Program-made: the position numbers and the translations under genes
Source: Bacteroidales bacterium UBA4331
Lineage (GTDB): Bacteria > Bacteroidota > Bacteroidia > Bacteroidales > Paludibacteraceae
Length of the DNA: 64,000 bases
Reading direction: 5' to 3'
Assembly (NCBI GenBank): GCA_002394395.1
Contig: DGTR01000020.1
Coordinates: 9,032-73,031, forward strand
Shown: piece by piece, positions 1-64,000 of the stretch
Numbering within the stretch: the stretch's first letter is position 1
Layout of the letters: every line of letters begins with the position of its first letter
Notes under the pieces: model-generated
Seen by the model: the letters and a program-made list of their open reading frames with translations, nothing else
Told to the model about the DNA's origin: nothing
The model's database searches: none

Positions 1-1244
1 TCGGTCAGCGCCTCTTCCGCCTGTTTGAGTTTGGGCACATCGATCCGCACGCCGGCAGCCTCCATCTCCCTGAGGACGGGCACCAAGGGCAGTTCGACCT
101 CGTTGTAGAGATTCCAGAGGTCGGCATCGGCTTTGAGAGCCTCCCAGTCGGGTTCTTTATTAGGATTGAACGCCACCTCGGGGTTGAGGAGGTATTGGCA
201 AAGGCGGTTCTCGATGGTGTCAAATGCATTTACCATTTGGTCATTTACCATTTGGTCATTTTGTTCCTCCGGAGCGGCGAAGAGATCGAGCTGATTTTGG
301 TCAGCTGGCGGATTAGGCTTCCTAGACGCCCTAGATGTACTAGATGTACTAGATATACTAGATGTACTAGAAGGACTAGATACCGGAGAGAGTTTGCGGA
401 GCAGGGTGTTGAACTCGAGGTCCTGATAGAGCTTTGTAAGGGCATCGAGGTTGGGTTCTTTTTTTGCCAGGAGCGACTCGTCCAAAGCAATGGGTACATC
501 CGTACGGATGGTAGCCAGGAATTTGGAGAACTTGATTTCTTCAACCTGAGACTCCACTTTGGTACGCAGGGCACCTTTGATCTCGTCCGTATGGGCAAGC
601 ATGTTTTCGATGGAGCCGAACTGCTGGAGCAATGCCACCGCCGTTTTCTCGCCGACGCCTTTGCAGCCGGGTATATTATCGCTGGCATCGCCCATGAGGC
701 CTAAGAGATCGATAACCTGCTCTTTGTGCTGCAGACCGTATTTGTCGCAGACCTCCTTGGGTCCCATGAGTTCGAAACCGCCCGTATGGCGGGGACGATA
801 CATGAACACATGATCGGAAACGAGCTGGCCGTAATCCTTGTCGGGCGTCGCCATATAGACTTCGTATCCGGCTTTTTCGCCCATATGGGAGAGCGTGCCG
901 ATGACGTCATCCGCCTCGAAACCGGGGACTTCGAGAATGGGTATATTCATCGCCTCGAGGAGCTGCTTGATGACGGGAACCGCCTTGCGGATGTCTTCCG
1001 GGGTCTCGGGTCGCTGGGCTTTGTATTGCTCGTACGCCTCGTGGCGGAAAGTGCCTCCTGCAGGGTCAAAAGCCACCCCTATGTGGGTTGGGTTGATCTT
1101 TTTGATGAGGTCATCGAGCGTGATGCAAAAACCAAAGATGGCCGAGGTGTTCTCGCCTTTACTATTCATGCGCGGGGCACGGATAAACGCATAATACGCG
1201 CGGAAAATCATCGCGTAAGCGTCGATAAGAAGCAGTTTTTTCAT
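1..1244 (-). CDS. polA: DNA polymerase I, N-terminal part (5' nuclease domain, repeat-encoded linker, start of polymerase domain); runs off left edge
   Basis: Own translation from ATG at 1244: MKKLLLIDAYAMIFRAYYAF..., GVGEKTAVALLQQFGSIENM (H3TH), later LYNEVELPLVPVLREMEAAGVRID. The frame stays open to position 1. It is absent from the ORF track because there is no stop in the window. Confidence 0.9.
   Translation of the reverse strand, partial: MKKLLLIDAYAMIFRAYYAFIRAPRMNSKGENTSAIFGFCITLDDLIKKINPTHIGVAFDPAGGTFRHEAYEQYKAQRPETPEDIRKAVPVIKQLLEAMNIPILEVPGFEADDVIGTLSHMGEKAGYEVYMATPDKDYGQLVSDHVFMYRPRHTGGFELMGPKEVCDKYGLQHKEQVIDLLGLMGDASDNIPGCKGVGEKTAVALLQQFGSIENMLAHTDEIKGALRTKVESQVEEIKFSKFLATIRTDVPIALDESLLAKKEPNLDALTKLYQDLEFNTLLRKLSPVSSPSSTSSISSTSSTSRASRKPNPPADQNQLDLFAAPEEQNDQMVNDQMVNAFDTIENRLCQYLLNPEVAFNPNKEPDWEALKADADLWNLYNEVELPLVPVLREMEAAGVRIDVPKLKQAEEALT
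227..261. repeat. tandem 15-mer CATTTACCATTTGGT x2.3, inside polA
   Basis: Counted directly: units 227-241 and 242-256, partial 257-261; read in-frame as NDQMV NDQMV. Confidence 0.95.
322..384. repeat. tandem 9-mer CTAGATGTA x7 (4 exact or 1-mismatch, 3 degenerate), inside polA
   Basis: Units start at 322, 331, 340, 349, 358, 367 and 376; read in-frame on the minus strand as PVSSPSSTSSISSTSSTSRASR. Confidence 0.95.
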
Positions 1245-1247
1245 GGT

Positions 1248-1913
1248 TTACCAGTCTATTGGCTCGAGGCCGTTTTTGATGAGATAGTTATTTGCCGCAC
1301 TAAAATGCCCGCAGCCGTCAAAACCGCGATAGACAGAGAGGGGCGAAGGGTGCGAGGTCTGAAGAACCAGATGTTTGCGGCGGTCGATATACTGCCCTTT
1401 GCGCTGCGCGTAGGAGCCCCAGAGCATGAAGACGAGATGGCTGCGCTCTTTATTGAGGGCTGCGATGGCGGCATCGGTCAGTTCTTCCCACCCCTTGCCT
1501 TGATGGCTGCCGGCTTTATACGCCTCGACCGTCAGAGTGGCATTGAGCAGGAGAACACCCTGCTCCGCCCATCGGCGGAGGTCTCCGGACTGCGGGATGG
1601 GTTTGCCTAAATCGCGGTGGATCTCCTTGTAGATATTCATGAGCGACGGGGGGATCTGCACTCCTTCGGGCACAGAGAAAGAGAGTCCCATCGCCTGGCC
1701 TTCCTCATGATAGGGGTCCTGACCGATGATGACGACACGGACGGAGTCGAAAGGACAGGAGTCAAAGGCATTAAAAATCAGACCAGCCGGAGGAAAACAC
1801 CGACGGGTCTGATACTGGGAGCGCACATAAGAAGTGAGGAGTTCGAAATAAGGCTTGTCAAACTCCGTCTGCAAAACGCGCTGCCAAGATGGGTCTATAC
1901 GTACTGTCATCAA
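1248..1913 (-). CDS. ung: uracil-DNA glycosylase
   Basis: 221 aa; family-1 UDG motifs GQDPYH and HPSPLS; 3-nt gap to the polA start. Confidence 0.95.
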   Translation of the reverse strand: MMTVRIDPSWQRVLQTEFDKPYFELLTSYVRSQYQTRRCFPPAGLIFNAFDSCPFDSVRVVIIGQDPYHEEGQAMGLSFSVPEGVQIPPSLMNIYKEIHRDLGKPIPQSGDLRRWAEQGVLLLNATLTVEAYKAGSHQGKGWEELTDAAIAALNKERSHLVFMLWGSYAQRKGQYIDRRKHLVLQTSHPSPLSVYRGFDGCGHFSAANNYLIKNGLEPIDW

Positions 1914-3031: not shown

Positions 3032-3046
3032 AGTCTTTTAGGGCTT

Positions 3047-3074
3047 TCAGCATTCAGTTTTCAGCATTCAGTTT
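3047..3074. repeat. tandem 14-mer TCAGCATTCAGTTT x2 spanning the truB stop codon
   Basis: Exact copies at 3047-3060 and 3061-3074; the truB TGA (3054-3056) lies inside the copy at 3047-3060. Confidence 0.95.
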
Positions 3075-3767
3075 TTCTAAAAATTGTTCGATCGTGTAGC
3101 AGTCCTCCACACGGGTGTCTCCTACACGTGTTCTGCGCAAAGCAGTGAGGTGCGCTCCGGATTGCAGGCGCTCGCCGATGTCACGAGCCAAGGCGCGGAT
3201 GTAGGTGCCTTTAGAGCACACGACACGAATGGTGAGGAGCATTTTCTCTTCGTCAAAACTCAAGACCTCTATCTCGTCAATCACCAAGAGCCTCGGTTTG
3301 AGTTCCACCTCTTCGCCCTTGCGGGCAAACTCATATGCCCGCTTGCCATTGATCTGAATGGCAGAGAAAGCCGGCGGTGTCTGCCATTGTTCTCCCTTAA
3401 AGAGCGGTATCGTCCGGTCGATCAACTCGCGGGTGATATGCTCCGTCGGGTAAGTCTGATCGATCTCTTTCTCTAAGTCATACGAAGGTGTCGTGGCACC
3501 TAACTGAAGTGTAGCGACATATTCCTTCACGTCGTATTGCAGCTGGTCAATCAGTTTCGTTTTGCGTCCCGTGCAGATGATTACCACACCCGTTGCCAAA
3601 GGATCCAAAGTGCCGGAATGACCGACTTTCAGTTTCTTGGTTCCCAGTTTCTTGCAAAGGTTATACCGCACTTTTGCCACCAGATCAAAGGAAGTCCAGT
3701 GCAGAGGCTTGTCAAAAGCCAACACTTCGCCTTGCTCAAAATCCCACATATCAGCAGACGGTAGCAA
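3054..3767 (-). CDS. truB: tRNA pseudouridine(55) synthase
   Basis: [13 protein letters not shown] and [13 protein letters not shown] motifs; 237 aa. Confidence 0.93.
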
Positions 3768-6592: not shown

Positions 6593-6604
6593 ACTTGTAG
6601 AGTA

Positions 6605-8176: not shown

Positions 8177-8220
8177 TGCTGAAGTGTTTTATCGTTTATA
8201 TTAAACTGTTTTTCAATAAC

Positions 8221-9165: not shown

Positions 9166-9212
9166 AATATTTATTTTGCTTTTAAAGTTTGTTTCTTTAT
9201 TAATAATAAGGA

Positions 9213-10559: not shown

Positions 10560-10561
10560 AC

Positions 10562-11789: not shown

Positions 11790-11834
11790 GTAAATTTATT
11801 CGAACCGTGCAAATATTTTATGCAATAATTTACA

Positions 11835-11884
11835 ATTTTCGGCAATTTTTACACCTTATTACCATTTTCCGTCAATTTTTACAC
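11835..11884. repeat. direct repeat ATTTTC(C)GKCAATTTTTACAC x2, period ~30, upstream of the T9SS operon promoter
   Basis: CAATTTTTACAC is exact at 11843-11854 and 11873-11884. Confidence 0.85.
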
Positions 11885-11887
11885 ATA

Positions 11888-12442
11888 TTATGCTTGGTTC
11901 CAGCTATATTCCTCCTCATTAGCAAGATGACTGACATAACGGGCTGAAACGAACAAAAAGTCACTTAAACGGTTGATATATTGGAGTAGTGTCAAATCGG
12001 CATTCGCTGCAATCATTTTTCGCTCTGCGCGACGGCAAACGGTACGGCAAATATGACATCTGCAGACCGGTTCGCTACCCATGGGAAGAATAAATGCTTT
12101 TTGCTTCGGAACGATAGCCTGCATCTCGTCAATCCAAGTCTCCAGAACATGAATATCTTCCTCTGAGATCCACTCTCCGGGCGCCTCGCTAAGTGCAGCT
12201 CCGAGATTGAAGAGTTTGTTTTGCACCCGAGACAGCTGTTCCTGTGTTTTCTTTATAGATTCTGACACTTTCGCAGTACTAAGCACGGTGGAATCCGATA
12301 ATGAAGCCCTAAGCATGCCTACCCAGCTATTGAGTTCATCGACCGTTCCATACGCCTCGATACGAGCGTCTGTCTTGGTTACACGGGCTCCCGAAGCCAG
12401 GGACGTCTCTCCCTTGTCCCCCGTTTTTGTATAAATAGCCAT
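11888..12442 (-). CDS. ATP:cob(I)alamin adenosyltransferase, PduO type
   Basis: 184 aa; IYTKTGDKGETSL and EAYGTVDELNS motifs. Confidence 0.9.
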   Translation of the reverse strand: MAIYTKTGDKGETSLASGARVTKTDARIEAYGTVDELNSWVGMLRASLSDSTVLSTAKVSESIKKTQEQLSRVQNKLFNLGAALSEAPGEWISEEDIHVLETWIDEMQAIVPKQKAFILPMGSEPVCRCHICRTVCRRAERKMIAANADLTLLQYINRLSDFLFVSARYVSHLANEEEYSWNQA

Positions 12443-13304: not shown

Positions 13305-13312
13305 TTATGGTG

Positions 13313-13360: not shown

Positions 13361-13364
13361 TGGC

Positions 13365-14676: not shown

Positions 14677-14720
14677 GTTAGAGATTAGTTAGTTATAAGT
14701 TAGATATTAGTTAGATATTA
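14677..14720. repeat. tandem 11-mer GTTAGATATTA x4 (2 exact, 2 degenerate), intergenic upstream of ybeY
   Basis: Units at 14677, 14688, 14699 and 14710. The same unit family recurs at 49068-49111. Confidence 0.95.
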
Positions 14721-17675: not shown

Positions 17676-17710
17676 TATTTACGATTTAATCATTTACCAT
17701 TTGGTCATTT
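17676..17710. repeat. second locus of the CATTTACCATTTGGT 15-mer (1 exact, 1 degenerate, 1 partial), in the sdhA-sdhB spacer
   Basis: Exact copy at 17691-17705, degenerate copy at 17676-17690 (11/15), partial CATTT at 17706-17710. Confidence 0.9.
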
Positions 17711-19832
17711 AGTTCTTATAGTTACGGGTCTTACGTTCCGTGAATTCGTAGTCCAGCGGCTCTTTGATGAGTTGCGGCTCTTGGTCCTCACCCATATATT
17801 TCCAGCAGCCTACGTAAGAGAACTTGTCGTCCTGACGGAGAGCCTCGCCTTCCGGCGTCTGGTATTCCTCGCGGAAGTGACCGCCGCAAGACTCCTCACG
17901 ATGGAGGGCATCGACAGCCATCAGACGGCCTATCTCAATGAAGTCCGCCAGACGGAGCGCTTTCTCCAGCTCGTTGTTCAGGCTGTTAGCCTCACCCGGG
18001 ATATAGACGTTGGTCCAGAACTCTTTCTTGATGGCGTCAATCTTCTTAATGCCTTCTTTCAAGCCCTCTGCGGTACGTCCCATGCCGACGAAGTCCCACA
18101 TCACGAGACCGAGCTCTTTGTGGATGGAGTCCACAGAACGGTTACCCTTGATAGCCATCAGTTTGTCAATCTTGTCCTGAACAGCTTTCTCTGCCTCTGC
18201 GAACTCCGGCAGGTCGGTACTCATACGAGGTACGCTGATCTGGTCTGCGAGGTAGTTCTGGATAGTGTAAGGCAGTACGAAATAGCCGTCAGCGAGACCT
18301 TGCATGAGGGCGGAAGCTCCGAGACGGTTGGCTCCGTGGTCGGAGAAGTTCGCCTCACCGATACAGAACAGACCCTTGACGGATGTCTGCAACTCGTAGT
18401 CCACCCAGATACCGCCCATCGTATAGTGGATAGCCGGGAAGATCATCATCGGGTTCTCATACGGGTTCTCGTCCACGATCTTCTCGTACATCTGGAAGAG
18501 GTTACCATATTTCTGAGCTACGACATCTTTGCCCAGACGCTGGATTGCTTCGCTGAAATCGAGGAACACAGCGAGACCGGTGTTGTTCACGCCGTAGCCT
18601 TTGTCGCAACGCTCTTTGGCAGCACGAGAAGCGACGTCACGAGGAACGAGGTTACCGAACGCTGGATAGCGACGCTCCAAGTAGTAATCGCGATCTTCCT
18701 CGGGGATATCACGTCCCTTGATCTCGCCTGCTTGCAGACGTTTAGCGTCCTCTAATTTCTTCGGCACCCAGATTCGTCCGTCGTTACGCAGCGACTCGGA
18801 CATAAGGGTCAACTTACTCTGGAAATCACCGTGCTTCGGAATACAGGTCGGGTGGATCTGTGCGTAGCAGGGGTTAGCGAAATATGCTCCGTGGCGGTAC
18901 ATCTGCATAGCAGCTGAACCGTTGGAAGCCATCGCGTTGGTAGAGAGGAAGAAGGTGTTACCATAACCACCGGAACCTACTACCACTGCGTGTGCGAAGA
19001 AGCGCTCAATGCGGCCGGTAACAAGGTTACGAGCGATGATACCGCGAGCACGTTTCTCGCCGTTCTCATCAGCGATGAGCACGATATCGAGCATCTCATA
19101 GCGGGTGTACATCTTCACTTTGCCCTTACCAATCTGGCGGCTCAGAGCACTATATGCGCCGAGCAGCAACTGCTGACCGGTCTGACCTTTGGCGTAGAAC
19201 GTACGGCTTACCTGTGCGCCACCGAAAGAACGGTTGTCAAGCAGACCACCGTATTCGCGTGCGAAAGGAACGCCCTGTGCTACACACTGGTCGATGATGT
19301 TATTGGAAACCTCTGCCAGACGATAAACGTTCGCCTCACGAGCGCGGTAGTCTCCACCTTTGATGGTATCGTAGTAGAGACGATAGACGGAGTCGCCGTC
19401 ATTCTGATAGTTTTTCGCTGCGTTGATACCGCCTTGTGCGGCGATAGAGTGTGCACGGCGGGGTGAGTCCTGGATACAGAAGTTGAGGACGTTAAATCCC
19501 ATCTCTGCAAGGGAGGCAGCAGCCGAAGCACCAGCCAGACCGGTACCTACTACGATCACGTCCAGACGGCGTTTGTTAGCCGGGTTCACCAGTTTCTGGT
19601 GGTTCTTGTAATTGGTCCATTTCAACTCCAGCGGTCCCTCCGGGATCTTCGCGTCCTTCGGAGTGATGACCGGAGTCGTTGCCTCTTTGACAGCCTCTGC
19701 GGCAGCAGCCTGAACCTGCTCGGTTACTTCTGCCGCCTTGTCCAGCACTTTCTCTGCCACGTCCAGAGCTGCCTCTGCTGCCTTCACTGCTACTTTTTTC
19801 GCAGCGTCTAATATTTCTTCTTTCTTTGCCAT
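17709..19832 (-). CDS. sdhA: succinate dehydrogenase/fumarate reductase flavoprotein subunit, with ~58-aa N-terminal extension
   Basis: 707 aa; FAD fold [18 protein letters not shown] and HYTMGG motifs; Ala/Lys/Glu-rich leader before KIPEGP. Confidence 0.93.
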
Positions 19833-23210: not shown

Positions 23211-24308
23211 GTGGCTATCAGAAAAAAAATAGTAACCCTTGTACTTTGTACCTTGTCCCTTTGTACGTATGGTCAGGTATCGAATGCAGGGCGGTCGGTG
23301 TTCTCGTTTATGGGGCTGCCGGTATCGTCGCGCATCAACGCCTTGGGCGGATCGAACGTCTCACTCAGCGATGGGGATATCGCAATGGGCATGTGCAACC
23401 CGGCGTTGCTGCATGCCAATAGCCACATGATGCTGCAACTCAACTATAGCTACTACCTGCCGGGAACGATGTTCGGTAGCGTGCTGTATGGGCATAATTT
23501 CGGGCGTTCTAAAATAGAGAAACCGGCAGAGGGTGAACCCGACAAGCCGAATTATTTCGCGGTGGGTATTCATTACTTGGACTACGGAAAGATGTACTAC
23601 GCGGACAAAGACGGCAATAAGACCGGTGGTTCGTTTGGTGCTCGGGACATCTTGATAGACGTGATGTACGCGCGTCAGTTAGGACGGATGTTCAAGGTCG
23701 GCGTGACACTCAAGCCGGTCTATTCAATCTATGAGAGTTATAGTTCGTTTGCGTTAGGCGCGGACGTAGGAGCGCATTTCCAAAGCCCGGACTCGACATT
23801 CCAGATGGGTCTGGTGCTGCAGAACATAGGATGGCAGTTGAAGGGATTCTACTCGGAGGAAGGCGGAACGAATCATGAGATGCTGCCGCTGAACCTGCAG
23901 TTGGGTCTGACGTACCGCGTGAAGCACGCGCCGTTGCGGTTCCATCTGCAGGCGCATAACCTGCAGACATGGTACCTGAACTACGAATGGACGGGTATCG
24001 ACAAGAACGTCACGACCGGTGACTTCATCCCCCATAACGTCAAATGGTACGACATGTTGTTCCGGCACACGATATGGACGATAGAGGTAGTAGATAAACG
24101 CGAGCGGTTCTACATCGCTTTCTCATATAACCACCGCCGCCGCGCGGAGTTAAATCTCGCTGATCAGCGGTCGTTAGCAGGATTCGCGTTAGGTCTCGGC
24201 GTACGAATCAAACAGGCGCATGTGGATTTTGCGATCAGTCAGATGACCAAGTCCAACTTCTCGTACCAGGTCGGATTGACATTAGATATAAACTCGCTCA
24301 TGAAATAA
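23211..24308 (+). CDS. porQ: T9SS outer-membrane protein PorQ-like
   Basis: 365 aa, GTG start; signal peptide then GRSVFSFMGLPVSSRINALGGSNV, which I recall as PorQ-like; beta-barrel-like alternation. Confidence 0.65.
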   Translation: MAIRKKIVTLVLCTLSLCTYGQVSNAGRSVFSFMGLPVSSRINALGGSNVSLSDGDIAMGMCNPALLHANSHMMLQLNYSYYLPGTMFGSVLYGHNFGRSKIEKPAEGEPDKPNYFAVGIHYLDYGKMYYADKDGNKTGGSFGARDILIDVMYARQLGRMFKVGVTLKPVYSIYESYSSFALGADVGAHFQSPDSTFQMGLVLQNIGWQLKGFYSEEGGTNHEMLPLNLQLGLTYRVKHAPLRFHLQAHNLQTWYLNYEWTGIDKNVTTGDFIPHNVKWYDMLFRHTIWTIEVVDKRERFYIAFSYNHRRRAELNLADQRSLAGFALGLGVRIKQAHVDFAISQMTKSNFSYQVGLTLDINSLMK

Positions 24309-24320
24309 ATAAATGCGAAA

Positions 24321-25013
24321 ATGAGTAAATGCGAAAATAAAATCATTGTTGCTATAGACGGATATTCGTCGTGCGGGAAATCAACGATAGCCAAGGCGCT
24401 GGCGAAACATGCGCACGCAACCTATGTAGATACCGGCGCTATGTACCGGGCTATTGCGTTGTACGTATTAGTCGAAAGTCGAAAGTCGAAAGTCGAAAAA
24501 TTGAGCGAGGAGGAGATCGTAGCGCTCTTGCCCAAGATCAAGGTAGGTTTTGTGCGGGTCGGCGATGCGCAGCACGTGACGCTGAACGGCGAAGATGTGG
24601 AGGGTCAGATACGGACACTCGAGGTCGGCAACCGCGCTTCGGAGATCTCGCAGATCAAAGAGGTGCGTGCTTTCCTTGTCGCGCAGCAACAGGCGATGGG
24701 TGCCAACCAGAGCATCGTCATGGACGGCCGCGATATCGGAACAGTTGTCTTCCCGAAGGCTGATCTGAAGTTGTTCCTCACGGCTCGGCCGGAGGTTCGC
24801 GCGCAACGGCGGTACGACGAGTTGGTAGCCAAAGGTGAGAAGCCTGTCTATGAAGAAGTATTGGCGGATGTCAACGACCGCGACTACCGCGACACGCATC
24901 GCGCCGAGAGCCCGTTACGGCAGGCTGAAGATGCCATCGTTGTAGATAACAGCGACATGACGCCGGAAGAGCAGATGCAAGTCATTTATGATCTGTACGA
25001 TAGACTCCAATAG
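24321..25013 (+). CDS. cmk: cytidylate kinase
   Basis: 230 aa; P-loop IDGYSSCGKST; DGRDIGTVVFP. Confidence 0.93.
   Translation: MSKCENKIIVAIDGYSSCGKSTIAKALAKHAHATYVDTGAMYRAIALYVLVESRKSKVEKLSEEEIVALLPKIKVGFVRVGDAQHVTLNGEDVEGQIRTLEVGNRASEISQIKEVRAFLVAQQQAMGANQSIVMDGRDIGTVVFPKADLKLFLTARPEVRAQRRYDELVAKGEKPVYEEVLADVNDRDYRDTHRAESPLRQAEDAIVVDNSDMTPEEQMQVIYDLYDRLQ
24470..24497. repeat. tandem heptamer AGTCGAA x4 inside cmk
   Basis: Four exact units counted; translated VESRKSKVEK. Confidence 0.95.
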
Positions 25014-25920
25014 CGGTTTCTGCTTCGGTGTGACACGCGCCATCCGGACAGCGGAAGAAGAGCTCCGGAAGGGGGCTCTTTGTTGCTTGGGGGACATCGT
25101 GCATAACGGTCAGGAGGTTGTGCGGTTAGAGGGCTTAGGGCTGGAAACGATTGACAACGACGACCTGCGTTCACTACCACCCCACTCGCGCGTGCTGCTA
25201 CGGGCTCACGGCGAACCGCCAAGCACGTACTGGATAGCCGAGCAAAGAGAAATAGAGGTTATCGACGCGACCTGTCCTGTTGTAAAAAAGCTACAGGACC
25301 GTATCCACGCCTGCTACGAGCAGCATAAGAACGACGAAGCCGTCCCTCCGCAGATTGTCATCTACGGCAAACGCGGTCATGCCGAGGTCATCGGGCTGCA
25401 AGGCCAAACGAACAACACCGCCATCGTAATCGAGCGCGAGGAGGAGTTGAACCAACTCGATTTCTCAAGACCAATCTACCTCTTCTCGCAGACCACAAAG
25501 AGCGTGGAAGGTTTTCAGAGCCTTGTCAAGGCGATTGAAGCGCGTCGTTCGTTATTACGTAATAACGTAATTACGTCATCACGAGAAGATTATAGCGCGC
25601 CGTTCGAGTATCACGATACCATCTGCCGGTCGGTAGCGAACCGCGTGGCGCTGTTGCAGGCCTTTGCGAAGGCGCAGGACCTCGTGATCTTCGTCGGTGG
25701 AGGCAAGAGTTCCAACGCGAAGGTGCTATATCAGCATTGCGTAGAGGCGAACCCGAAGACGATCTTTGTCTCGTCACAGGACGAGTTGGAAGACAAGCTT
25801 GCGGAGTACCGCGAGCAGATACAAACAAATCCCGACTGGAAAGTCGGGATCTGTGGTGCTACAAGTACACCGTTATGGTTAATGGAAAAGTGCAAGGCAT
25901 CAATAGAGGAGGTGCGATAG
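24988..25920 (+). CDS. ispH: 4-hydroxy-3-methylbut-2-enyl diphosphate reductase
   Basis: 310 aa; SGFCFGV, ATCPVV, GHAEV and SSN motifs; overlaps the cmk 3' end by 26 nt. Confidence 0.93.
   Translation: MICTIDSNSGFCFGVTRAIRTAEEELRKGALCCLGDIVHNGQEVVRLEGLGLETIDNDDLRSLPPHSRVLLRAHGEPPSTYWIAEQREIEVIDATCPVVKKLQDRIHACYEQHKNDEAVPPQIVIYGKRGHAEVIGLQGQTNNTAIVIEREEELNQLDFSRPIYLFSQTTKSVEGFQSLVKAIEARRSLLRNNVITSSREDYSAPFEYHDTICRSVANRVALLQAFAKAQDLVIFVGGGKSSNAKVLYQHCVEANPKTIFVSSQDELEDKLAEYREQIQTNPDWKVGICGATSTPLWLMEKCKASIEEVR
25551..25578. repeat. overlapping perfect palindromes / TTACGTAA-like octamers x3 inside ispH
   Basis: GTTATTACGTAATAAC (25551-25566) and ACGTAATTACGT (25565-25576) are both self-complementary. 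Confidence 0.9.
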
Positions 25921-45400: not shown

Positions 45401-46099
45401 GTTAGGGGTAGGAAGAGTAATAGAGGAATTTGCTGTTGCTTGTGTGAGATTTGATGTGGCGCACGATCCTTCGTTTGCATTGAAAGTGACTTTGCCTAAA
45501 TATGTAACAACGATTTGTGTTATTCGTGCCTGTTTACCCGAACTTCCACTGGTAGCAGACTTATTCCACGATGTTGTAGATAAACCACTAACACTATATG
45601 AGTTTGATGATCCATTCCATCCCCCATTATTACTTCCGTTAGTAAATGTAAAGGATAATGCCGTAATGTTGGATGTTGCCGAGATTGTCAATTTTGCTCC
45701 TTTGTACAATCGTAAATCAGATGCTTGTACAGAGCCAAAACCACTAACAGTAACTTCATTTTTTGTTAAACTTCCTCCTGAGAAAGATGAATAGTCACTT
45801 GATGATGTAAACGTGACACTCGCTCCCCACACATTTCCAACTCCGATCCAGAGTAATACCAGTATAGTGGCTGCGAATCGTACACTTTTCCGCAACCCTT
45901 GCGCTACCCTTGCGCTACTTTTTTGCAGCCACTCTCGCGCCACTCTCACGTCACTTGCTTTGCAATGACGTAGCACCGAGGTCATGTTTGCCCGTCTGTT
46001 GACCGCCGGTTGCCCGTCGTAATTGATAGTTTCCGCTCTCATTCCACTCATTGCTGACACCCTTTGCAATAAGTTTGATAAAAAGTCAAACTTTTTCAT
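39491..46099 (-). CDS. giant cell-surface protein with many Listeria-Bacteroides (InlB B-type) repeats; no T9SS-type tail seen
   Basis: About 2200 aa; more than 8 modules of the type VTF.ANGG...GY.F.GW.....LYAQW. The start is ambiguous: ATG 46099, or TTG 45895 just before the signal-peptide-like RKSVRFAATILVLLWIGVGNVWG. Confidence 0.75.
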   Translation of the reverse strand: MKKFDFLSNLLQRVSAMSGMRAETINYDGQPAVNRRANMTSVLRHCKASDVRVAREWLQKSSARVAQGLRKSVRFAATILVLLWIGVGNVWGASVTFTSSSDYSSFSGGSLTKNEVTVSGFGSVQASDLRLYKGAKLTISATSNITALSFTFTNGSNNGGWNGSSNSYSVSGLSTTSWNKSATSGSSGKQARITQIVVTYLGKVTFNANEGSCATSNLTQATANSSITLPTPNRSGFTCTGWYTASSGGTKRGNVGDTYTPTVSETLYAQWEADVPAYTITAARNNDSYGNVSLSGTTITATPAACCEYASPAYTVSPAGSATVSQVGNAFTVTPSANTTVTINFQEKSAGKTVNFDAGAGVCATTSLTEDCDGSGIVLPNVTASGVCKGWTTFAGWRTSAIATADSTTTNPGTLYAAGSTYYPSSNGETLYAVFSKTKGGGTTPTEKPLTFGTTYASNGSDLTSVTIYTGITATATEGTTNNPKYYTTSPGTWRMYSGSELTISSSIGNITKIEFTKSSDFNLSVKSGESGTLSSETWTYASGVSSITFNVGGTTKLSAIAVTYLAPSSTTYYCSDPNCCTPLGTINGSVSLTQLATSDPTKLKATWAMNAETGIASYTLEVYNSSNTLVKTINNYTSGSEITGLTPCTEYYVKLYTVSSGSPYCEGGLIGTSSSCTTNSYNVTFPILTGTTKLTGNATACASGNYVATFEAANEAYELPTASGVTVTIGGSPATSGTDYTWAVSEGVGTLTIPTAKQTGDITIAVVSVAHSCSATPTLGAASLSGAFSLSSVGISCAGITPVSYCAVESGDYGFIWYEGTASDKKIGDTGVTKIAISTGDYSSGSFSTALSSTFVAGNTYTFRAFATNTGENTGYSAESSFTPRSVTFDSNGGSAVATAYVNSGSTVSQPSAPTRTGYDFVKWQLNGADYSFSSAVNANITLDAVWDAKSYTVTLDQQSGSGGSENVSATYDADMPSATMPTRSGYTFGGYYGSEGGAGTQYYAADGSSAHTWDVADAKTLYAQWTAKNYTITLNNEGADSGKEGTESISVTFDANTNLTSAITKPVKDGYKFGGYYTEEDGSGTQIIDENGNVNASVTSYTSAIKQWIYANNIELHAYWKPSYTVTWSVNGETTTEQVVSGEQVAALPAAPTSSDCDDAKVFVGWRSTEIDGVSAANPGSIFTTQAASPAITGNTTFYAVFADEGKATRTTLYSEPFTGTCGTNTAWASASSYFYNASTASITTTTNWQVSKYTTNPSDNDGASGGSHMLCGSSDKDIVFDFGDKSSYVDLQLSFNFKNEAGKNTNRTIGCYVSGDDGESWTSNLISVSTIQDQDWHACSYNISNGSTGALQVKFSTLAANASRVDDITLTGCAKTYSNYVTSCSSCDADATFTNTTPEVSAIDCDAATLTATDGLATLGADGCNVSDYGFVIGTTDNPTIGGVGVNKLQVGTTNPTIGADFSYDATGLTKGTHYYIRAYATNRHGTVYSGSQNFWTKGVRSIAITTAPTKTKYVEGETFDKTGMVVTATMADGSTEDVTSDCTFSPSLSTKLSDQTAVRATYSLCEVDKTADQAIDVYTLTVTEGTNDTYGTAGKTDNKVTVTGLGDHKTYTVTVTSGNADKIDNGDGTYTITNATGNVTVRVDYADAVQVKVYYKVDGVTVTGLTQNVYQSETTTLPTASELATEMTAQGMDIPDDSYPNFVGWSETEFGAQTSEPTLVTGTPTINAEKIYYAVYTNLNVIRLDKTSTGVSTSYPSASSADASITVGGKGFKVNYLIYQNETGGVNPFLQFKKDATYYGRIYNSDALSNILKVVVAYKNADSNVKVYACSAAGTISGDAITAGTRGATDPYVYTMPANTQYLMVRGDNGTAYKTYYIDIYYASATVEYMTQFCTRYDITGVTKSGTAVTGGTLSSNYNSACEGKSVELEAVVSTGYQFNGWTIKKTADLTQDVTSTLLGANASSLTPPAFSMPAYAITVSASITEKELTGWTWKQALPDESIAIPSKVVLYVGQRAEFDLIEYDPSDVLAKKKGYGVAKEDAYLTQNAKAADYYKADAKAAVESTTLTLTSTSNSSVQEVINIQIKALPSVTFEDHVHSVVFSAVAATIGESDKRVVYLTKTTPTTSDFSGTTYNTCEEQHEHLVGWIESGWADEHPNATHSEIAGAGADVFYTAGASIDVEAQNGKTFYAVWSKIE
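45895..45949. repeat. two adjacent tandem 11-mers (ACCCTTGCGCT x2; GCCACTCTCRC x2)
   Basis: 45895-45905 / 45906-45916 are exact; 45928-45938 / 45939-45949 have 1 mismatch. Confidence 0.9.
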
Positions 46100-46130
46100 A
46101 TTATTTTGATTTTTATATTTATTTCGTTTT

Positions 46131-47333
46131 TTAGTTTTTACTTGACTCATGAGTAACTTGTTTCTCCACCGAGGATACAATATCTTTCTCTATAGGATAG
46201 ATAGTCGCCTTGGATATATTCATTTTTTTTAGCATAGGCTTTATCTGTGTTCTAATGAGTTTCTTGCTTATATCCACACAATGCAAAGTGGGTAAATGTA
46301 GATACGTATTGTTATGTGACCAAAAATCTTCTAAGGGTATATTGCTTTCGTTTGGATTGTACAGCATAAAACATCCTTCTTGGGCTGTGATGTTAAGATT
46401 TGTAAGTTTGACGTTCTGAATAATAGCATTATATAGTTTTTCATAATACTCATTGTATAAAGCGGAATGACGCGTCAATTTCCCTATTTTAACATCATTT
46501 ACAAATTTAGCAATAAAATCGTTATATTCTTTTTTCGTTGTTTTGGGTATAATAGGGACTCTTTTGTCGGTTATATATCCTAACTCTATACGATTGATTC
46601 CTTCGCCGCGATTACTAGGGTCTGCCCACAAAAGAAAATTCTCCCAATTAAGAATAGAAACATCAAGATGAATGCCCGGATGGTGGGTTAGGACATTGAT
46701 TATACCATCAAGGGCTTGCTCTAATTGATCTGCATACCACTTTATAATGTCAATAAGTTCGAATCCACGTTCACCCAAATCAATCCAATATATAGAGACA
46801 TATTTACTAATATCGTTGCCAAATAAACAATACTTATATTTATCTTGTGCAAAAAATAACGCTTTGTCCAAGGAGTAACTAAAATCCAAGAAAGGGGTTT
46901 TAGCGCTATAATGTTGCATCAGACTCAAATATAAGAAGTCCGTCTCGTCCACTCCAAGAGCCTCAAAATATCGAGGGAATAATCTGTCATTAGACTTTTT
47001 TAGAGCAATTATCTCCCGAGCGATAAAATGTCGAGGCGCGATAGATGTCATGTCCAAAAGATAATGCACTTGCGCAGAGGTAAATATTTTATACTTAGCA
47101 TCATTAATGCCTCGGAAAATACAATTAGGTTTCTCCACTAACACGCTATGAAAATCCTCAAATTGCGCTTCGTCATCTATTCTACAATAGTCTAAATGTG
47201 GATTGTGCTGAGAATCTCTCCAGAAACGCTCCTTTTCGGCTAATGAGAAGTAGTTCTTTATTGACAAAGTATATGCAAACTTTCTATCTGGGTTATACAA
47301 CTCAAATGGGTTTACGGGATCTGTCGCTTTCAT
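46131..47333 (-). CDS. FRG-domain protein
   Basis: 400 aa; IFRGINDAKYKI, LMQHYSAKTPFLDFSYS and NLNITAQEGCFMLY match the FRG-domain signature blocks as I recall them; AT-rich gene. Confidence 0.8.
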   Translation of the reverse strand: MKATDPVNPFELYNPDRKFAYTLSIKNYFSLAEKERFWRDSQHNPHLDYCRIDDEAQFEDFHSVLVEKPNCIFRGINDAKYKIFTSAQVHYLLDMTSIAPRHFIAREIIALKKSNDRLFPRYFEALGVDETDFLYLSLMQHYSAKTPFLDFSYSLDKALFFAQDKYKYCLFGNDISKYVSIYWIDLGERGFELIDIIKWYADQLEQALDGIINVLTHHPGIHLDVSILNWENFLLWADPSNRGEGINRIELGYITDKRVPIIPKTTKKEYNDFIAKFVNDVKIGKLTRHSALYNEYYEKLYNAIIQNVKLTNLNITAQEGCFMLYNPNESNIPLEDFWSHNNTYLHLPTLHCVDISKKLIRTQIKPMLKKMNISKATIYPIEKDIVSSVEKQVTHESSKN

Positions 47334-49034: not shown

Positions 49035-49067
49035 CCAACTCAACTTCGAGGTTCTTACCTTCCAATC

Positions 49068-49111
49068 GTTAGTTATTAGTTAGATATTCGTTCGTTATTC
49101 GTTAGATATTC
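49068..49111. repeat. tandem 11-mer GTTAGATATTC x4, second locus of the 14677 family
   Basis: Units at 49068, 49079, 49090 and 49101. Confidence 0.95.
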
Positions 49112-49859: not shown

Positions 49860-51914
49860 TTAATCTTGCAACGTCTGGAGCTTGTTCTGCATCTCCAACA
49901 TTTCGTCCCGAAGCCGTGCAGCCATCTCAAAATCAGTAGCTTTCGCCGCTGCGAGCATCTGTTTGCGTTTGTTATCTATCGCTTTCTGCAAGGTCTGCAC
50001 ATTCATCTTCTGCCACTCGGCAGTCTTCCAACTCTCGCGGATCGCTTCTTCTACCTTCCGTTTCTCCGCCTCCGGGTCCTTGTAGAGCGATGCGAGGGCC
50101 GAAGTGTTGATCTCTTTCTTAATCGCCGTCGGCGTGATGCCATGCTCGGCGTTATACCGCATCTGGATGGTTCGGCGGCGGTTGGTCTCATCGATGGTGG
50201 CCTGCATTGCCGGCGTGATCTTATCGCCGTAGAGGATCGCCTTGCCGTTCACATGCCGCGCAGCACGACCTACCGTCTGTGTCAGACTTCGCTGGTCACG
50301 CAGGAATCCGGACTTATCCGCATCGAGAATCGCCACGAGCGACACCTCCGGCAGATCGAGTCCCTCACGCAGCAGGTTCACACCCACCAAGACGTCATAC
50401 TCGCCTTTGCGCAAGTCCTCCATGATCTTCACGCGCTCGATAGTATCTATATCCGAATGGATATAGGCAGACTTGACTCCATAGCGACGGAGGTACTCAT
50501 CCAACTCCTCCGCCATCCTTTTTGTCAGCGTCGTGACGAGGATACGTTCGTTGCGATGAATTCGGAAACGTATCTCGTCCATGAGGTCGTCCACCTGGTT
50601 CTCTGTCGGTCTCACTTCAATCTCCGGATCCAGCAGACCTGTCGGCCGGATGAGCTGGTCGATGACGATTCCTTCGCTCTTATTCAGTTCGTACTCATCC
50701 GGCGTCGCAGAAACGAAGATGGTGGCCCCTTGCCGGCCTTCCCCTTGAGGGGAAGGAGTTAATCCCACTTTCGCCTCGAACTCATCGAATTTCAGCGGTC
50801 GGTTGTCGCGCGCCGCAGGAAGCCTGAATCCGTAGTTGACAAGGTTTTCCTTACGGGCTTTATCACCTCCGTACATACCCCGGATTTGCGGAACGGTCAC
50901 ATGGCTCTCGTCGATGACAAGAAGCATATCTTTCGGGAAATAATCGAGCAGACAATACGGCGGCGTGCCTTCTTCACGGCCGTCAAAATAGCGGCTGTAG
51001 TTCTCCACTCCGGAGCAATAACCGAGTTCGTCCAGCATCTCCAGATCATACTTCACGCGCTCCTCTATACGCTTTGCGTATAACTCTTCGCCGATGGAGA
51101 TGAAATACTCAATCTGCTTCGCCAAGTCGGCTTTGATCTGTTCTTTCGCTGCAGCAATACGATCTGCGGAAGTCAAGAAGATCGTCGCCGGCGAGAGGTT
51201 ATAGGAGTCGAACTCCTCCAACACCTGTCCGGAGATCGGATCGACCGTCAGGATAGCGTCTATCTCATTGCCGAAAAACTCCACCCGCACAAGATAATCC
51301 GCGTACGCCAGCGCAATATCGACGGTATCTCCCTTGACGCGGAATCGTCCGCGCGCGAGTTCTATATCGTTACGCGTGTATTGCGCGCCCACGAGCGATT
51401 TTAATAAGGTGTCCATCTGGATCTTCTCTCCGCGACGAAGGGAAACGACATTCGCCGTGAAATCCTGCGGACTGCCCAAACCATAGATACAGCTGACCGA
51501 AGAGACGATGATCACATCTTTCCGTCCGCTCAACAACGCCGCTACGGCAGAGAGCCGCAGTCGGTCGATCTCCTCGTTGATCGAGAGGTCCTTCTCGATA
51601 TATAGATCGGTCGAAGGGATATACGCCTCGGGCTGGTAGTAGTCATAATAACTCACGAAATACTCCACCGCATTATGCGGAAAGAACGCCTTCATCTCCG
51701 AGTACAACTGCGCTGCGAGGGTCTTGTTATGGCTCATGATGAGCGTCGGCCGGTTCAGTTCCTTAATGACATTCGCTACCGTGAACGTCTTTCCCGAACC
51801 GGTCACACCCAAAAGCACCTGCGCAGGAGCACCGGCTTTGATTCCTTCGACTAAGGCCTCAATCGCTTGCGGCTGATCGCCCGTCGGCTTATATGGAGAT
51901 TCTAATTGAAACAA
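49860..51914 (-). CDS. uvrB: excinuclease ABC subunit B
   Basis: 684 aa; YKPTGDQPQAI, GVTGSGKT, helicase motifs and C-terminal UVR domain; apparent TTG start. Confidence 0.95.
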   Translation of the reverse strand: MFQLESPYKPTGDQPQAIEALVEGIKAGAPAQVLLGVTGSGKTFTVANVIKELNRPTLIMSHNKTLAAQLYSEMKAFFPHNAVEYFVSYYDYYQPEAYIPSTDLYIEKDLSINEEIDRLRLSAVAALLSGRKDVIIVSSVSCIYGLGSPQDFTANVVSLRRGEKIQMDTLLKSLVGAQYTRNDIELARGRFRVKGDTVDIALAYADYLVRVEFFGNEIDAILTVDPISGQVLEEFDSYNLSPATIFLTSADRIAAAKEQIKADLAKQIEYFISIGEELYAKRIEERVKYDLEMLDELGYCSGVENYSRYFDGREEGTPPYCLLDYFPKDMLLVIDESHVTVPQIRGMYGGDKARKENLVNYGFRLPAARDNRPLKFDEFEAKVGLTPSPQGEGRQGATIFVSATPDEYELNKSEGIVIDQLIRPTGLLDPEIEVRPTENQVDDLMDEIRFRIHRNERILVTTLTKRMAEELDEYLRRYGVKSAYIHSDIDTIERVKIMEDLRKGEYDVLVGVNLLREGLDLPEVSLVAILDADKSGFLRDQRSLTQTVGRAARHVNGKAILYGDKITPAMQATIDETNRRRTIQMRYNAEHGITPTAIKKEINTSALASLYKDPEAEKRKVEEAIRESWKTAEWQKMNVQTLQKAIDNKRKQMLAAAKATDFEMAARLRDEMLEMQNKLQTLQD
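50737..50756. repeat. GC-rich hairpin CCTTCCCC-N4-GGGGAAGG, copy 3 (inside uvrB)
   Basis: Stem 50737-50744 / 50749-50756; minus-strand context CTCCTTCCCCTCAAGGGGAAGGCCGG. Confidence 0.9.
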
Positions 51915-51932
51915 ACTTTCAAACTTTCAAAC
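51913..51932. repeat. tandem octamer AAACTTTC x2.5 overlapping the uvrB start codon
   Basis: Units 51913-51920 and 51921-51928, partial 51929-51932. Confidence 0.9.
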
Positions 51933-52442: not shown

Positions 52443-52536
52443 CTGCTTTTTTATGAAACTACCAAATATTTTTGCAAAAAAATACAAAAAAAATTGAAAA
52501 AATGGCATTTTATTTGTGTAAATCAAAAAATAGTAG

Positions 52537-52544
52537 TAATTTTG
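52537..52544 (+). promoter_or_regulatory. -7 box TAATTTTG upstream of tamB
   Basis: TAnnTTTG match about 33 nt before ATG 52577. Confidence 0.55.
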
Positions 52545-52576
52545 TAGGCTAATTATACGCACACCTGCATACGCAC

Positions 52577-59413: not shown

Positions 59414-59480
59414 TATTTATTCGTCATTTTTGGCCGCCGTTTGCGACCGGTTAATTTGATAAGACCCATAAAAAGTCGGA

Positions 59481-59579
59481 CAAAGGTACTGCTTTTTTTT
59501 GAGATACACAAATTTTTTTTTATTTTTCCCGAAAAAATGCAATTTAATTTGCGTAAGTGCAAAAAAAGTTGTATCTTTG
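59481..59579. promoter_or_regulatory. divergent promoters (pnp / mlaE)
   Basis: TACCTTTG (minus, 59481-59488) and TATCTTTG (plus, 59572-59579). Confidence 0.55.
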
Positions 59580-59602
59580 CACGCTTTTTAATATACTTAG
59601 CG

Positions 59603-62564: not shown

Positions 62565-63322
62565 AAATCATTAGTTATAATTTGAATGGTATCCGCTCGG
62601 CTATTGGCAAAGGATTGCTGGAGTGGTTACAGAGTGAGAGTCCTGATGTCTTTTGTATCCAGGAGAGCAAAGCGCAGCCGGAACAGATTGACGTGATGGC
62701 GTTTCAAGAGTTGGGGTATCACAGTTATATCCACTCCGCGGAGAAAAAAGGCTACTCGGGCGTGTGTATCTTCACGAAGCAAGAGCCGGATAAAGTGGTC
62801 GTCGGCATGGGCAACCCCAAATACGACCGCGAGGGACGTGTGCTGCGCGTCGATTTCGGCGATCTGACCATCGTCGATGCCTATATCCCCAGCGGCACGA
62901 CAGGCGATGTACGACAAGATTTCAAGATGGAGTTTCTCGAGGATTTCCTCGTTTGGGTCAATGAGTTGCGTAAAGAGCGACCGAACATCGTCATCTGCGG
63001 CGATTATAATATCTGTCATAAACCGATTGATATTAACCACCCTGAGCGGCAGATTGGTGTATCGGGTTTCTTACCCGAAGAGCGCGAGTGGATGGATCGA
63101 TGGGAAGCCAGCGGTCTGGTGGACTCTTTCCGTGTGTTTGACCAGAGTGCCGAGCGGTATAGCTGGTGGTCGTGGCGAGCAGGTGCAAGAGCAAGAAACG
63201 TAGGATGGCGGATTGACTACTTGTGGGTCAGCGAGAGCCTGCGCGGAAGACTGAAAGACGGGAAGATCTTAACCGACGCCGTTCATTCCGACCATTGTCC
63301 GGTGATGGTAGAAATCGCATAA
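62561..63322 (+). CDS. xth: exodeoxyribonuclease III
   Basis: 253 aa; [20 protein letters not shown] and SDHCPV motifs; ATGA overlap with the upstream gene. Confidence 0.92.
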
Positions 63323-63411
63323 ATTAAACTTCACGGGATAATATACGTAGTATATTATAGGGTGGTGCAGGATACGATATACATAGGACATAGTAAGGAC
63401 ATGCATAGTTT

Positions 63412-64000
63412 ATGGATAAATTACGAACAGAACATCTGATCAAAAAATACGGCAAGAGGACCGTGGTGGATGATGTCTCTATCCAGCTGGAACAGGGGGA
63501 GATAGTGGGTCTGCTGGGTCCTAACGGAGCCGGTAAGACGACGACGTTCTATATGACAACCGGTCTGGTGGCTGCCAATAACGGTAAGATCTTCCTCAAC
63601 GATCAGGATATCACTTCATACCCGATGTACAAGCGGGCGAAGATGGGTATCGGCTACCTGCCGCAAGAGGCGAGTGTGTTCCGCAAGATGACCGTAGAGG
63701 ATAATATCCGCTCGGTTTTGGAGCTGACAGATTTCAGCAAGGAGTACCAGGAGGAGAAATTAGAGAGCCTGATCAAGGAGTTTAACCTGGCGCACGTTCG
63801 TACGAATCTCGGTGACCGTCTGAGTGGTGGCGAGAGACGAAGGACGGAGATCGCCCGGTGTCTGGCTATCGAACCGAAGTTCGTCATGCTCGACGAACCT
63901 TTTGCGGGTGTCGATCCTATCGCCGTGCAGGAGATTCAGGATGTCGTATGGAGGCTCAAAGACAAGAATATCGGCATCCTCATTACCGACCATAACGTGG
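63412..64000 (+). CDS. lptB: LPS export ABC transporter ATP-binding protein, runs off right edge
   Basis: Own translation: [23 protein letters not shown]...[12 protein letters not shown]...[16 protein letters not shown]...[11 protein letters not shown]; no stop before 64000. Confidence 0.9.

Follow-up and report, generated by a model that had tools for sequence, protein, structure and literature searches.

Tandem repeats dominated by seven-nucleotide units (heptamers) have been on record from scattered phyla of bacteria since 1990 and 2007, and no mechanism or function for them is generally accepted. Here we describe an excess of such arrays in a 64,000-nt stretch of DNA (hereafter the window) from Bacteroidales bacterium UBA4331 (Paludibacteraceae), taken from contig DGTR01000020.1 (positions 9,032 to 73,031, forward strand) of assembly GCA_002394395.1. 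In heterocystous cyanobacteria, short tandemly repeated repetitive (STRR) sequences use a few fixed heptamers (CCCCAGT, TTGGTCA, CAACAGT), mostly in long intergenic arrays, and Elhai reportedly found in 2008 that small dispersed repeats (SDRs) are nested in the STRR heptamers of Calothrix, Anabaena and Nostoc. Rickettsia palindromic elements (RPEs) are a single palindromic family of 100-150 bp, specific to Rickettsia, whose members are inserted into housekeeping genes without breaking the frame, where the protein surface tolerates them.

Mrázek, Guo and Shah (2007) reported genomes rich in long simple sequence repeats (LSSRs) with units of 5-11 nt, heptamers being the commonest, and proposed that they arise by polymerase slippage, with about 7 nt corresponding to the length of DNA held by the polymerase; the carriers described are Burkholderia, cyanobacteria, actinobacteria and Xanthomonas (all as summarised in PMC4679880 and PMC4692102). 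TAACTGA direct repeats occur in marine Beggiatoaceae, some cyanobacteria and five Bacteroidetes (PMC4679880), and the GGGAATC/GGGGA(T/C)T heptamers of Xanthomonas and Nostoc are G-rich and can form quadruplexes (PMC4692102). A first-pass annotation of the window, made from its sequence, did not recognise the arrays as a described repeat class; going by these summaries, heptamer-dominated LSSRs had already been described in several phyla, and the heptamer syndrome reported here is a lineage-wide case within that known class.

Tandem arrays in the window and its clade

Array loci were called with Tandem Repeats Finder (TRF; period 6-30, score at least 40, calls merged), which condensed 55 output rows into 24 loci, compared to 1.2 ± 1.0 expected from 30 dinucleotide-preserving shuffles (a roughly twenty-fold excess). 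With a stricter score of at least 50, the window and the shuffles have 14 and 0.3 loci, respectively. The first-pass annotation had listed 18 loci of stutter duplications, 16 of which were recovered at the lower threshold. Locus 25551 is weak (8-mer x2.5, TRF score 33, partly palindromic), and locus 33864 is a 13-nt direct repeat with 24-nt spacing, on which TRF is silent and which is plain from the sequence. TRF added loci 16235, 23237, 24311, 32794, 46093, 49242, 49299, 49347 and 52476. Two further hits, at 1739 (a 14-mer in ung) and 24431 (a 13-mer encoding DTGAMYRA in cmk), fall in conserved protein motifs without any insertion, are therefore probably due to chance, and were excluded from the phenomenon.

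Ten of the 24 arrays are coding and in frame, four straddle a gene end and ten are intergenic; coding sequence makes up 91% of the window, yet 14 of the 24 lie between genes or at their ends, a strong enrichment in spacers. Coding arrays (six of ten with heptamer or 14-mer units) lie in the PolA linker, a cmk loop, an ispH loop, the porQ signal peptide, the linker of a pectate-lyase-like protein, a membrane-protein segment and three HhH-like segments, and the boundary arrays end the truB reading frame (its last seven codons), begin that of cmk and make up operon spacers. Earlier gene calls held for polA, the 3' end of truB, cmk and ispH (the last three by NCBIfam); uvrB was confirmed by Pfam, but the array placed inside its start (51912-51932) is upstream of the open reading frame (ORF). 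The membrane protein called UPF0104-like has no Pfam or NCBIfam match, and the sole profile match of the HhH protein in these searches is a sub-threshold HHH_3. No Rfam covariance model matched at its gathering score anywhere in the window, and a tRNA search of the window found none. A second assembly (locus L296) agrees with the window at 100% identity across 13 kb, and a protein identical to the window's cmk product is present on a 92-kb ENA metagenome scaffold. Identical QueA is encoded on 23 contigs. Since independent assemblies, L296 included, carry the same arrays, these are not assembly artefacts.

Relatives were found by scanning species-representative genomes with cmk, and the clade and outgroup loci taken from them are cmk-centred and about 20 kb each (loci are numbered with the prefix L). 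Uncultured rumen and gut Bacteroidales and Paludibacteraceae metagenome-assembled genomes (MAGs; RUG225, UBA3717 and others) form a tier with 95-98% protein identity, followed by a second tier at 65-80% and by Rikenellaceae and other Bacteroidales at 50-53%. Across 339 kb, the 19 clade loci (L002-L020, cmk identity at least 65%) hold 153 arrays (a median of 4.8 per 10 kb), and 14 more distant Bacteroidales loci of the same G+C content contain 12 arrays in 230 kb (median 0.24 per 10 kb). Array density per 10 kb is 4.5 in the clade loci vs 0.44 in the outgroup loci, a difference of about ten-fold (Mann-Whitney p = 1.5e-6). Eight further arrays lie in the 8 kb that adjoin the window on its left in the same strain; these and the clade-wide excess answer the earlier concern that the rest of the genome might have no such excess, which is not confined to the window.

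Seven nucleotides is the dominant unit length (73 of 177 arrays), followed by 11 (31), 8 (18), 12 (16) and 14 (11). The 73 heptamer arrays fall into 38 unit classes, most arrays being singletons, which points to a process and not to one element. More than 120 contigs came up in a metagenome scan for arrays of the AGTCGAA type. They have G+C contents of 31-73% and 7.3 arrays per 10 kb, 57% of them of period 7; as these unrelated contigs are array-rich, the syndrome is widespread, and it matches the heptamer-rich LSSR class. Exact triple heptamers in IMG/VR numbered 46 for AGTCGAA, 33 for TTGGTCA, 30 for AATCCGA (an arbitrary control), 10 for AAATCAG, and 7, 5, 4 and 1 for four other units. The argument that AGTCGAA is a universal special unit was dropped on these broad counts (1-46, no clean split), and no conclusion is drawn on privileged units. 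The array features, in window coordinates, are as follows.

1..1244, minus strand: 5' part of polA (first 414 aa), running off the left end of the window; 5'-nuclease domain, repeat-built linker and start of the polymerase domain
227..261, minus strand: 15-mer x2.3, sense AATGACCAAATGGTA, encoding NDQMVNDQMVN in the PolA linker (TRF, translation); kin of 17677-17715
322..384, minus strand: 9-mer x6-7, sense TCTAGTNNA, Ser-rich PolA linker, in frame (TRF; family D4); copy number polymorphic
3043..3075, minus strand: heptamer/14-mer array that makes up the queA leader and the end of truB (final 7 codons, stop) (TRF, translation)
11830..11890, unstranded: 29-mer x2.1, intergenic (TRF; family D18)
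14677..14720, unstranded: 11-mer x4 (GTTAGATATTA), intergenic (TRF; family D7); kept in L002
16235..16279, plus strand: 12-mer x3.8, Gly-rich linker (EGGGEGGGQGGGQGG) of a pectate-lyase-like ORF (TRF, Pfam, translation, alignment)
17677..17711, minus strand: 15-mer/heptamer array filling the sdhA-sdhB spacer (alignment; family D9)
23237..23266, plus strand: heptamer x3.9, signal-peptide region of porQ (TLVLCTLSLCT), hydrophobic core (TRF, translation, alignment)
24311..24338, plus strand: 8-mer x3.5 across the porQ stop and cmk start, extending the cmk N-terminus (TRF); missing from L004, L005 and L009
24468..24503, plus strand: AGTCGAA x4 cassette in a cmk loop (LVESRKSKVEK); member of a cassette family (TRF, alignment)
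25551..25580, plus strand: 8-mer x3 (weak), ispH loop (TRF, NCBIfam, alignment)
31926..31960, minus strand: heptamer/14-mer x2.5 in the membrane-protein ORF (VTGYGLRVMGYG) (TRF, alignment, translation)
32753..32822, plus strand: small palindromic element (CCCTTCCTTTCAGGGAAGGG...) and after it heptamer x4.3, HhH-like ORF, in frame (family D11; alignment)
33098..33136, plus strand: AAATCAG/AAATCAT x5.6, HhH-like ORF (QIRNHKSEIINQKL) (TRF, alignment, translation)
33864..33900, plus strand: in-frame duplication with 24-nt period (NGEAINPINGEA) (sequence, alignment); not in L002, L003 or L009
34434..34470, plus strand: second copy of the palindromic element (CTCCCTTCCTTTAAGGGAAGGGCGGGGGTTAGGCTTT) (repeat comparison); related copy in L300
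35149..35178, minus strand: TTAAACA x4.3, spacer between two minus-strand genes (TRF, alignment)
45891..46140, unstranded: two arrays of 11-mers and one AT-rich array of 6/18-mers, either upstream of a 2229-aa ORF or within its 5' end, which is doubtful
49066..49111, unstranded: 11-mer x4.2 (TCGTTAGATAT), non-coding island (TRF); kept in L007
49161..49364, unstranded: 9-mer array, then TGTCGCTTT x3 and TGAGACTTT x3, then their inverted complements; nested inverted repeat (TRF, folding)
51912..51932, minus strand: 8-mer x2.6 directly upstream of uvrB (TRF, Pfam)
52476..52502, unstranded: A-rich 11-mer x2.5, promoter region, borderline score (TRF; families D1, D8)

Turnover and copying of arrays

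The inserted segments are missing from distant orthologues, so the arrays are DNA-level insertions and not conserved protein features, the reading that the first-pass annotation had wanted checked. With many sequenced close relatives, this Bacteroidales case allows array gains, losses and replacements to be dated site by site. The cmk array at 24468 is a net 18-nt insertion relative to L006-L015 and is missing from the 75-80% tier. The sdhA/sdhB junction measures 2-5 nt in five species and holds four unrelated arrays in others, and the ispH loop contains, depending on the species, an 8-mer array, AAATCTC x4, AAATCAC x3, a 15-17-mer x3 or an 84-nt hairpin-rich insert. Alignment with related loci revealed the same gain, loss and replacement at the membrane-protein and HhH sites; the HhH array at 33098 is identical in six species, and CACCAAT-type arrays stand in its place in L010 and L012.

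Coding arrays with heptamer or 14-mer units have a constant copy number in the alignments of all carrying relatives (88-94% identical), contrary to the frameshift danger that had been seen in such units. In genes, the only copy-number variation seen with a unit that is not a multiple of three (non-3n) is at the extreme C-terminus of truB, where L297 has one 14-nt unit fewer and an altered tail (231 vs 241 aa). The 9-mer array of the PolA linker differs in unit order among relatives about 93% identical and yields proteins of 782 or 785 aa. The 12-mer at 16235 differs in copy number between species, and the spacer array at 35149 has fewer copies in L002 and none in L009. In L005, and likewise in L009, identical substitutions are found in both 14-mer copies at 31926, an indication of concerted evolution. 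At the 5' end of sdhB (L003, L006) and in malQ (L004, L012), some array flanks match those of much more distant species over those of close relatives. This mismatched kinship suggests homologous recombination between species of the clade and, judged from the flanks (L004 matching L012, L003 matching L006), flank-carrying recombination appears to explain part of the sharing of arrays between species.

The recurrence of two unit sequences at distant loci, noted earlier, is real. A 39-nt stretch at 228-266, in the polA linker, recurs at 90% identity at 17677-17715, in the sdh spacer, flanking bases included (family D9). The second recurrence is that of GTTAGATATT units, at 14677 and 49068, where the 11-mer arrays (14677 and 49066-49111) have units in common (family D7). 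The array at 227..261 is kept in four relatives that are about 93% identical. The 38-nt truB/queA array recurs at 92% identity at a non-orthologous site in L010, upstream of a gene starting MKKGIHPENY (putatively rpmE), and both sites share the cassette ends GGGCTTTCAGCATTCAG...TTTTTCT. A cassette of about 33-36 nt, TTAGTMGAAAGTC(N)AAAGTCGAAAGTCGAAAGAC (TTAGTMGAAAGTC...GAAAGAC), is present in cmk of the window group, at three to four loop sites in the CBM20 region of malQ (L012, L004, L005) and twice in a gene of L011; this AGTCGAA cassette is sense-oriented at seven of seven independent coding sites and encodes VESxKSKVE(R/K). The same malQ sites have CAGCCGT/CAGCATT units in L010 (also found at three other L010 places), a third type in L006 and none in the window. 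At malQ site C, the ancestral sequence AAGGTCTCGGAA resembles the array unit arising there and is a plausible local seed.

Among pairs of heptamer arrays located at different sites, 9.4% have a 10-mer in common when both are from one genome vs 3.1% when they are from different genomes and non-syntenic sites, both values being far above the approximately 0.1% estimated for random heptamer units, and many of the within-genome partners are 0.1-4 kb apart. The palindromic element CCCTTCCTTTMAGGGAAGGG(C)GGGGTTAGGCTTT is present twice in the HhH gene of the window and also in several relatives, including the distant L300. Its palindrome CCCTYCCYTNNARGGRAGGG, followed by GGGGTTAGGCTTT, occurs at 32753-32785 and 34434-34470 of the window and in L002, L003, L005, L008, L009, L012 and L300 (as a tandem pair in the last); CCCTYCCYTNNARGGRAGGG itself has two to three copies in the window, inside the ORF, and one to two per related locus. 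An 84-nt hairpin-rich element has two copies among the examined loci, L008:3449-3532 (in frame in ispH) and the non-orthologous L004:8684-8770, and a 56-nt hairpin-plus-heptamer module is shared by L011 ispH and the upstream region of L008 cmk. Alignments of filled and empty sites contained no terminal inverted repeats or target-site duplications, the marks of miniature inverted-repeat transposable elements or insertion-sequence derivatives, and no transposase was associated with arrays in the loci examined or adjoined the window arrays. Shared ends and a shared order of unit variants at non-orthologous loci point to copying between sites, beyond local slippage. The earlier suggestion of a dispersed or templated process is thus supported in part.

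The region at 46-50 kb contains a different feature. Positions 49190-49370 (181 nt) fold into one long hairpin (z -4.45), a nested inverted repeat that is conserved in L007:17385-17570 (minus strand; z -3.67) at a different genomic position; the arrays at 49203-49364, first listed as ordinary stutter repeats, are its arms. The inverted repeat is located within a 2.5-kb ORF-poor, low-G+C, pyrimidine-skewed stretch. Positions 46000-49860 are likewise ORF-poor, with a G+C content of 34-40%, strong pyrimidine skew and nine iteron-like copies of AGCCTGTTCCTTTTTT; they adjoin an FRG-domain gene (46131-47333, minus strand) and small zinc-ribbon-like ORFs and are probably an acquired island or origin-like region. 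A replication origin at 46-50 kb was rejected, as this region has no DnaA-box cluster and its skew change tracks gene orientation.

Elsewhere in the window, a dispersed motif of about 40-58 nt (TTTGCA...AAAAAAGCAGTAATTTTG and similar) is located upstream of genes on both strands (13311-13368, 23117-23194, 32662-32719, 52424-52552, 59470-59587); it looks like an ordinary fit to Bacteroidetes promoters (TTTG, TAnnTTTG). Large surface-protein genes with leucine-rich, Listeria-Bacteroides and fn3 repeats (19887-21545, 25921-28974, 35178-46180) accompany the type IX secretion genes porK/L/M/N, porP and porQ (4785-11527 and 23211-24308).

PolA and explanations of the arrays

The full PolA of the identical strain (L296:11788-14136) is 782 aa long. 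Residues 3-293 and 367-781 align with Taq residues 13-293 and 417-830, respectively, leaving the exonuclease domain unmatched, and a 74-aa linker built largely from two arrays (SSPSSTSSISSTSSTS and NDQMVNDQMVN) replaces the whole 3'-5' exonuclease domain, which has about 190 aa in Klenow and 124 aa in Taq. PF01612 is missing from about 100 close PolA homologues by Pfam and present in more distant Paludibacteraceae, Prevotellaceae and Bacteroides homologues; the 5'-nuclease domain looks intact. The Taq alignment and Pfam thus bear out the first-pass description of an apparently exonuclease-less (exo-less) PolA. Its speculative link to the repeats is not established, because densities of 0.9-7.4 arrays per 10 kb in exo-less lineages bracket the 1.2 and 1.7 of those that retain the domain (exo-plus):

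Exo-less PolA, window clade: 4.4 arrays per 10 kb
Exo-less PolA, L298: 4.1 arrays per 10 kb
Exo-less PolA, L300: 7.4 arrays per 10 kb
Exo-less PolA, L299: 1.7 arrays per 10 kb
Exo-less PolA, L035: 0.9 arrays per 10 kb
Exo-plus PolA, L036: 1.7 arrays per 10 kb
Exo-plus PolA, L037: 1.2 arrays per 10 kb

With densities this mixed in loci from three exo-plus and further exo-less lineages, exo-less PolA was set aside as the cause and retained only as a candidate contributor, neither established nor excluded. In three relatives the exo-less polA is called as two ORFs or is shortened: L300:10001-12371 (380+417 aa), L035:10001-12429 (587+212 aa) and L298:10001-11857 (618 aa). The break, at or after the repeat-built linker, could be gene splitting, a frameshift or an assembly error.

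We lean, with somewhat more conviction than doubt, towards a lineage-heritable mutational syndrome in which polymerase stutter and short-range template switching, the mechanism that we infer, are filtered by selection. Replication or repair synthesis would often stutter on short templates, with units of about 7 nt preferred and 8, 11 and 12 nt also used, and would switch template across short homologies, together producing short tandem arrays, occasional small palindromes and 30-40-nt cassette copies elsewhere. In genes, selection would keep only net changes of 3n length at tolerant places (linkers, surface loops, signal peptides and termini), and the surviving arrays would keep the orientation that encodes a harmless peptide. 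Spacers and 5' leaders tolerate most products, so arrays would accumulate there. Non-3n arrays in genes would be frozen in copy number after fixation, and 3n, terminal and spacer arrays would go on slipping. The observed distribution of arrays is the one to be expected from such a filter, and the A-rich units encode hydrophilic peptides, in line with it. Faulty Okazaki-fragment maturation in yeast (rad27/FEN1) gives insertion-biased indels in simple sequence repeats, direct-repeat duplications and palindrome-forming template switches (PMC5677150), a signature that supports a replication- or repair-based mechanism by analogy only.

Several points weigh against this explanation. The comparison covers about 20 kb per related genome, rather than whole genomes, and no enzyme has been tied to the arrays. 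One-unit slippage cannot place an in-frame heptamer array in an essential gene, so that multi-unit or cassette events must be assumed, and a dedicated mobile element could explain just as well why cassettes at five or more sites have the same length and ends. Some in-gene arrays are better conserved than their flanks (33098, for instance), which could indicate a function at the nucleotide level. The correlation with PolA is inconsistent: exo-less L035 and L299 have low densities, exo-plus L036 has both of its arrays in its own polA linker, and the classic heptamer-rich genomes (Nostoc, Xanthomonas, Burkholderia) have a PolA with the exonuclease domain.

The main rival, possible but appreciably less probable, is a dedicated system of very small mobile elements, in which arrays and palindromes (STRR/SDR-like, or like RPEs and repetitive extragenic palindromic (REP) sequences) are inserted as pre-formed 30-85-nt cassettes by a dedicated enzyme or by homing into existing arrays, the periodicity being intrinsic to the element. 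Such elements would account for the cassettes with defined ends at non-orthologous sites (cmk/malQ/L011; queA and the rpmE-like site of L010; 228-266 and 17677-17715), the 84-nt element (L008 ispH, L004:8684) and the 56-nt module (L011 ispH, L008 cmk upstream), the clade-wide recurrence of the palindromic element as far as L300, and the three shared malQ sites that hold CAGCCGT/CAGCATT in L010 and AGTCGAA in L012 and L004. They fit poorly with 38 mostly singleton heptamer classes in 73 arrays, with the lack of terminal inverted repeats, target-site duplications or an associated transposase in the examined loci, with the part of between-species sharing that seems due to flank-carrying recombination, and with the clear slippage-type variation within arrays and the plausible local seed.

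More tentatively, and on balance rather doubtfully, an active copy-and-paste process could be at work, in which cassettes and palindromes written by stutter and switching are re-copied to other loci, including in frame in essential genes, favoured by the exo-less PolA with its array-built linker. If this were true, exo-less and exo-plus Paludibacteraceae sisters would offer a natural experiment on the origin of heptamer repeats. The polymerase-based explanation proposed in the literature gains in exo-less PolA a concrete candidate that can be tested, although the correlation here is weak.

It is unlikely that the arrays are selected functional elements, such as A/U-rich unstructured translation leaders, binding arrays for cold-shock or S1-type proteins, or sites of DNA curvature. 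Bacteroidetes mRNAs are without Shine-Dalgarno sequences, and many arrays stand directly before start codons or fill junctions that measure 2-5 nt in relatives (sdhA/sdhB, truB/queA, porQ/cmk, 35149, uvrB); many units also share an AAAT(C/G)NN theme, and arrays such as 33098 are perfectly conserved despite diverging flanks. Heptamers before start codons have been proposed as S1/Csp/Csr sites in Beggiatoaceae, and CspB binds one heptamer per protein (PMC4679880). However, the orthologous junctions of close relatives work without arrays, the units are highly diverse and match no Rfam family, ten arrays are coding, where such roles are improbable, and the presence or absence of an array does not track gene identity.

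Phase variation at contingency loci, driven by slippage as in the simple sequence repeats of host-adapted pathogens, is largely refuted and very improbable. Units of 7, 8 or 14 nt would put a gene out of frame, L297 has one 14-mer fewer in the truB-terminal array, and several arrays are in promoter or leader regions; yet each array has only two to six copies, the affected genes (cmk, ispH, polA, sdh) are housekeeping and not surface or restriction genes, and the single non-3n change seen is in a dispensable C-terminal tail. Because non-3n coding copy number is otherwise constant and change is seen only where it is harmless, the arrays are not phase-variation switches. Chance low-complexity sequence or metagenome assembly error, which might explain loci that are weak or in conserved motifs without insertion (1739, 18446, 24431, 25551, 52476), is refuted by the excess over both shuffles and same-G+C outgroup loci and by the recurrence of arrays in independent assemblies and species.

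Comparison with described repeat classes

The arrays show that tandem repeats can build new coding sequence, including linkers, loops, signal-peptide cores and termini of housekeeping enzymes, and the identical cassettes at unrelated loci go beyond simple local slippage. Those who annotate Paludibacteraceae MAGs from rumen and gut should be prepared for in-frame insertions peculiar to the lineage and, now and then, for genes split or extended at arrays.

REP sequences with their associated tyrosine transposases (REP/RAYT) combine a high-copy extragenic palindrome that has a conserved tag with a RAYT gene in the genome; in the loci compared, the palindrome CCCTYCCYTNNARGGRAGGG is low-copy, and it lies inside an ORF. 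The arrays resemble RPEs in their in-frame insertion at tolerant places of housekeeping genes and differ from them in size and in not forming a single family; most insertions here are 20-45-nt tandem arrays, and only 32753, 34434 and the 84-nt element are palindromic. The rad27/FEN1 signature comprises the same trio of products, but in eukaryotic laboratory mutants, and only the 3'-5' exonuclease of PolA is missing here.

The arrays share with STRR sequences the tandem heptamers accompanied by tiny dispersed or palindromic sequences and a presence that differs between orthologous sites. TTGGTCA, the STRR2 unit, occurs inside some arrays (window 227-261, L010:16720, L012:15850), where it is only part of the unit. 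The arrays are not STRR members: they have 38 unit classes and two to six copies, many are coding, and the host belongs to the Bacteroidales. Like the TAACTGA repeats, they have two to six heptamer copies just before start codons, share units between unrelated phyla and are limited in their in-gene orientation by stop codons; one unit dominates there and many are found here, with no TAACTGA array seen in the window. Like the GGGAATC heptamers, they include intergenic heptamers between the same genes in related species with extensively varying lengths and sequences, but they are mostly A/T-rich and have no G-runs.

In kind, the arrays belong with LSSRs, with which they share a genome- or lineage-specific excess with patchy distribution, heptamers as the commonest unit, and diverse units. 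The present case differs in its Bacteroidales host, in the recurrence of identical cassettes at different loci, and in its genes, since LSSRs within genes have mainly 3n units whereas heptamer arrays here lie in frame, as blocks of about 21-36 nt, in housekeeping genes. Less usual within the LSSR class are its in-frame non-3n arrays frozen inside housekeeping genes, its sites where arrays are repeatedly gained and replaced, and its cassettes copied between loci.

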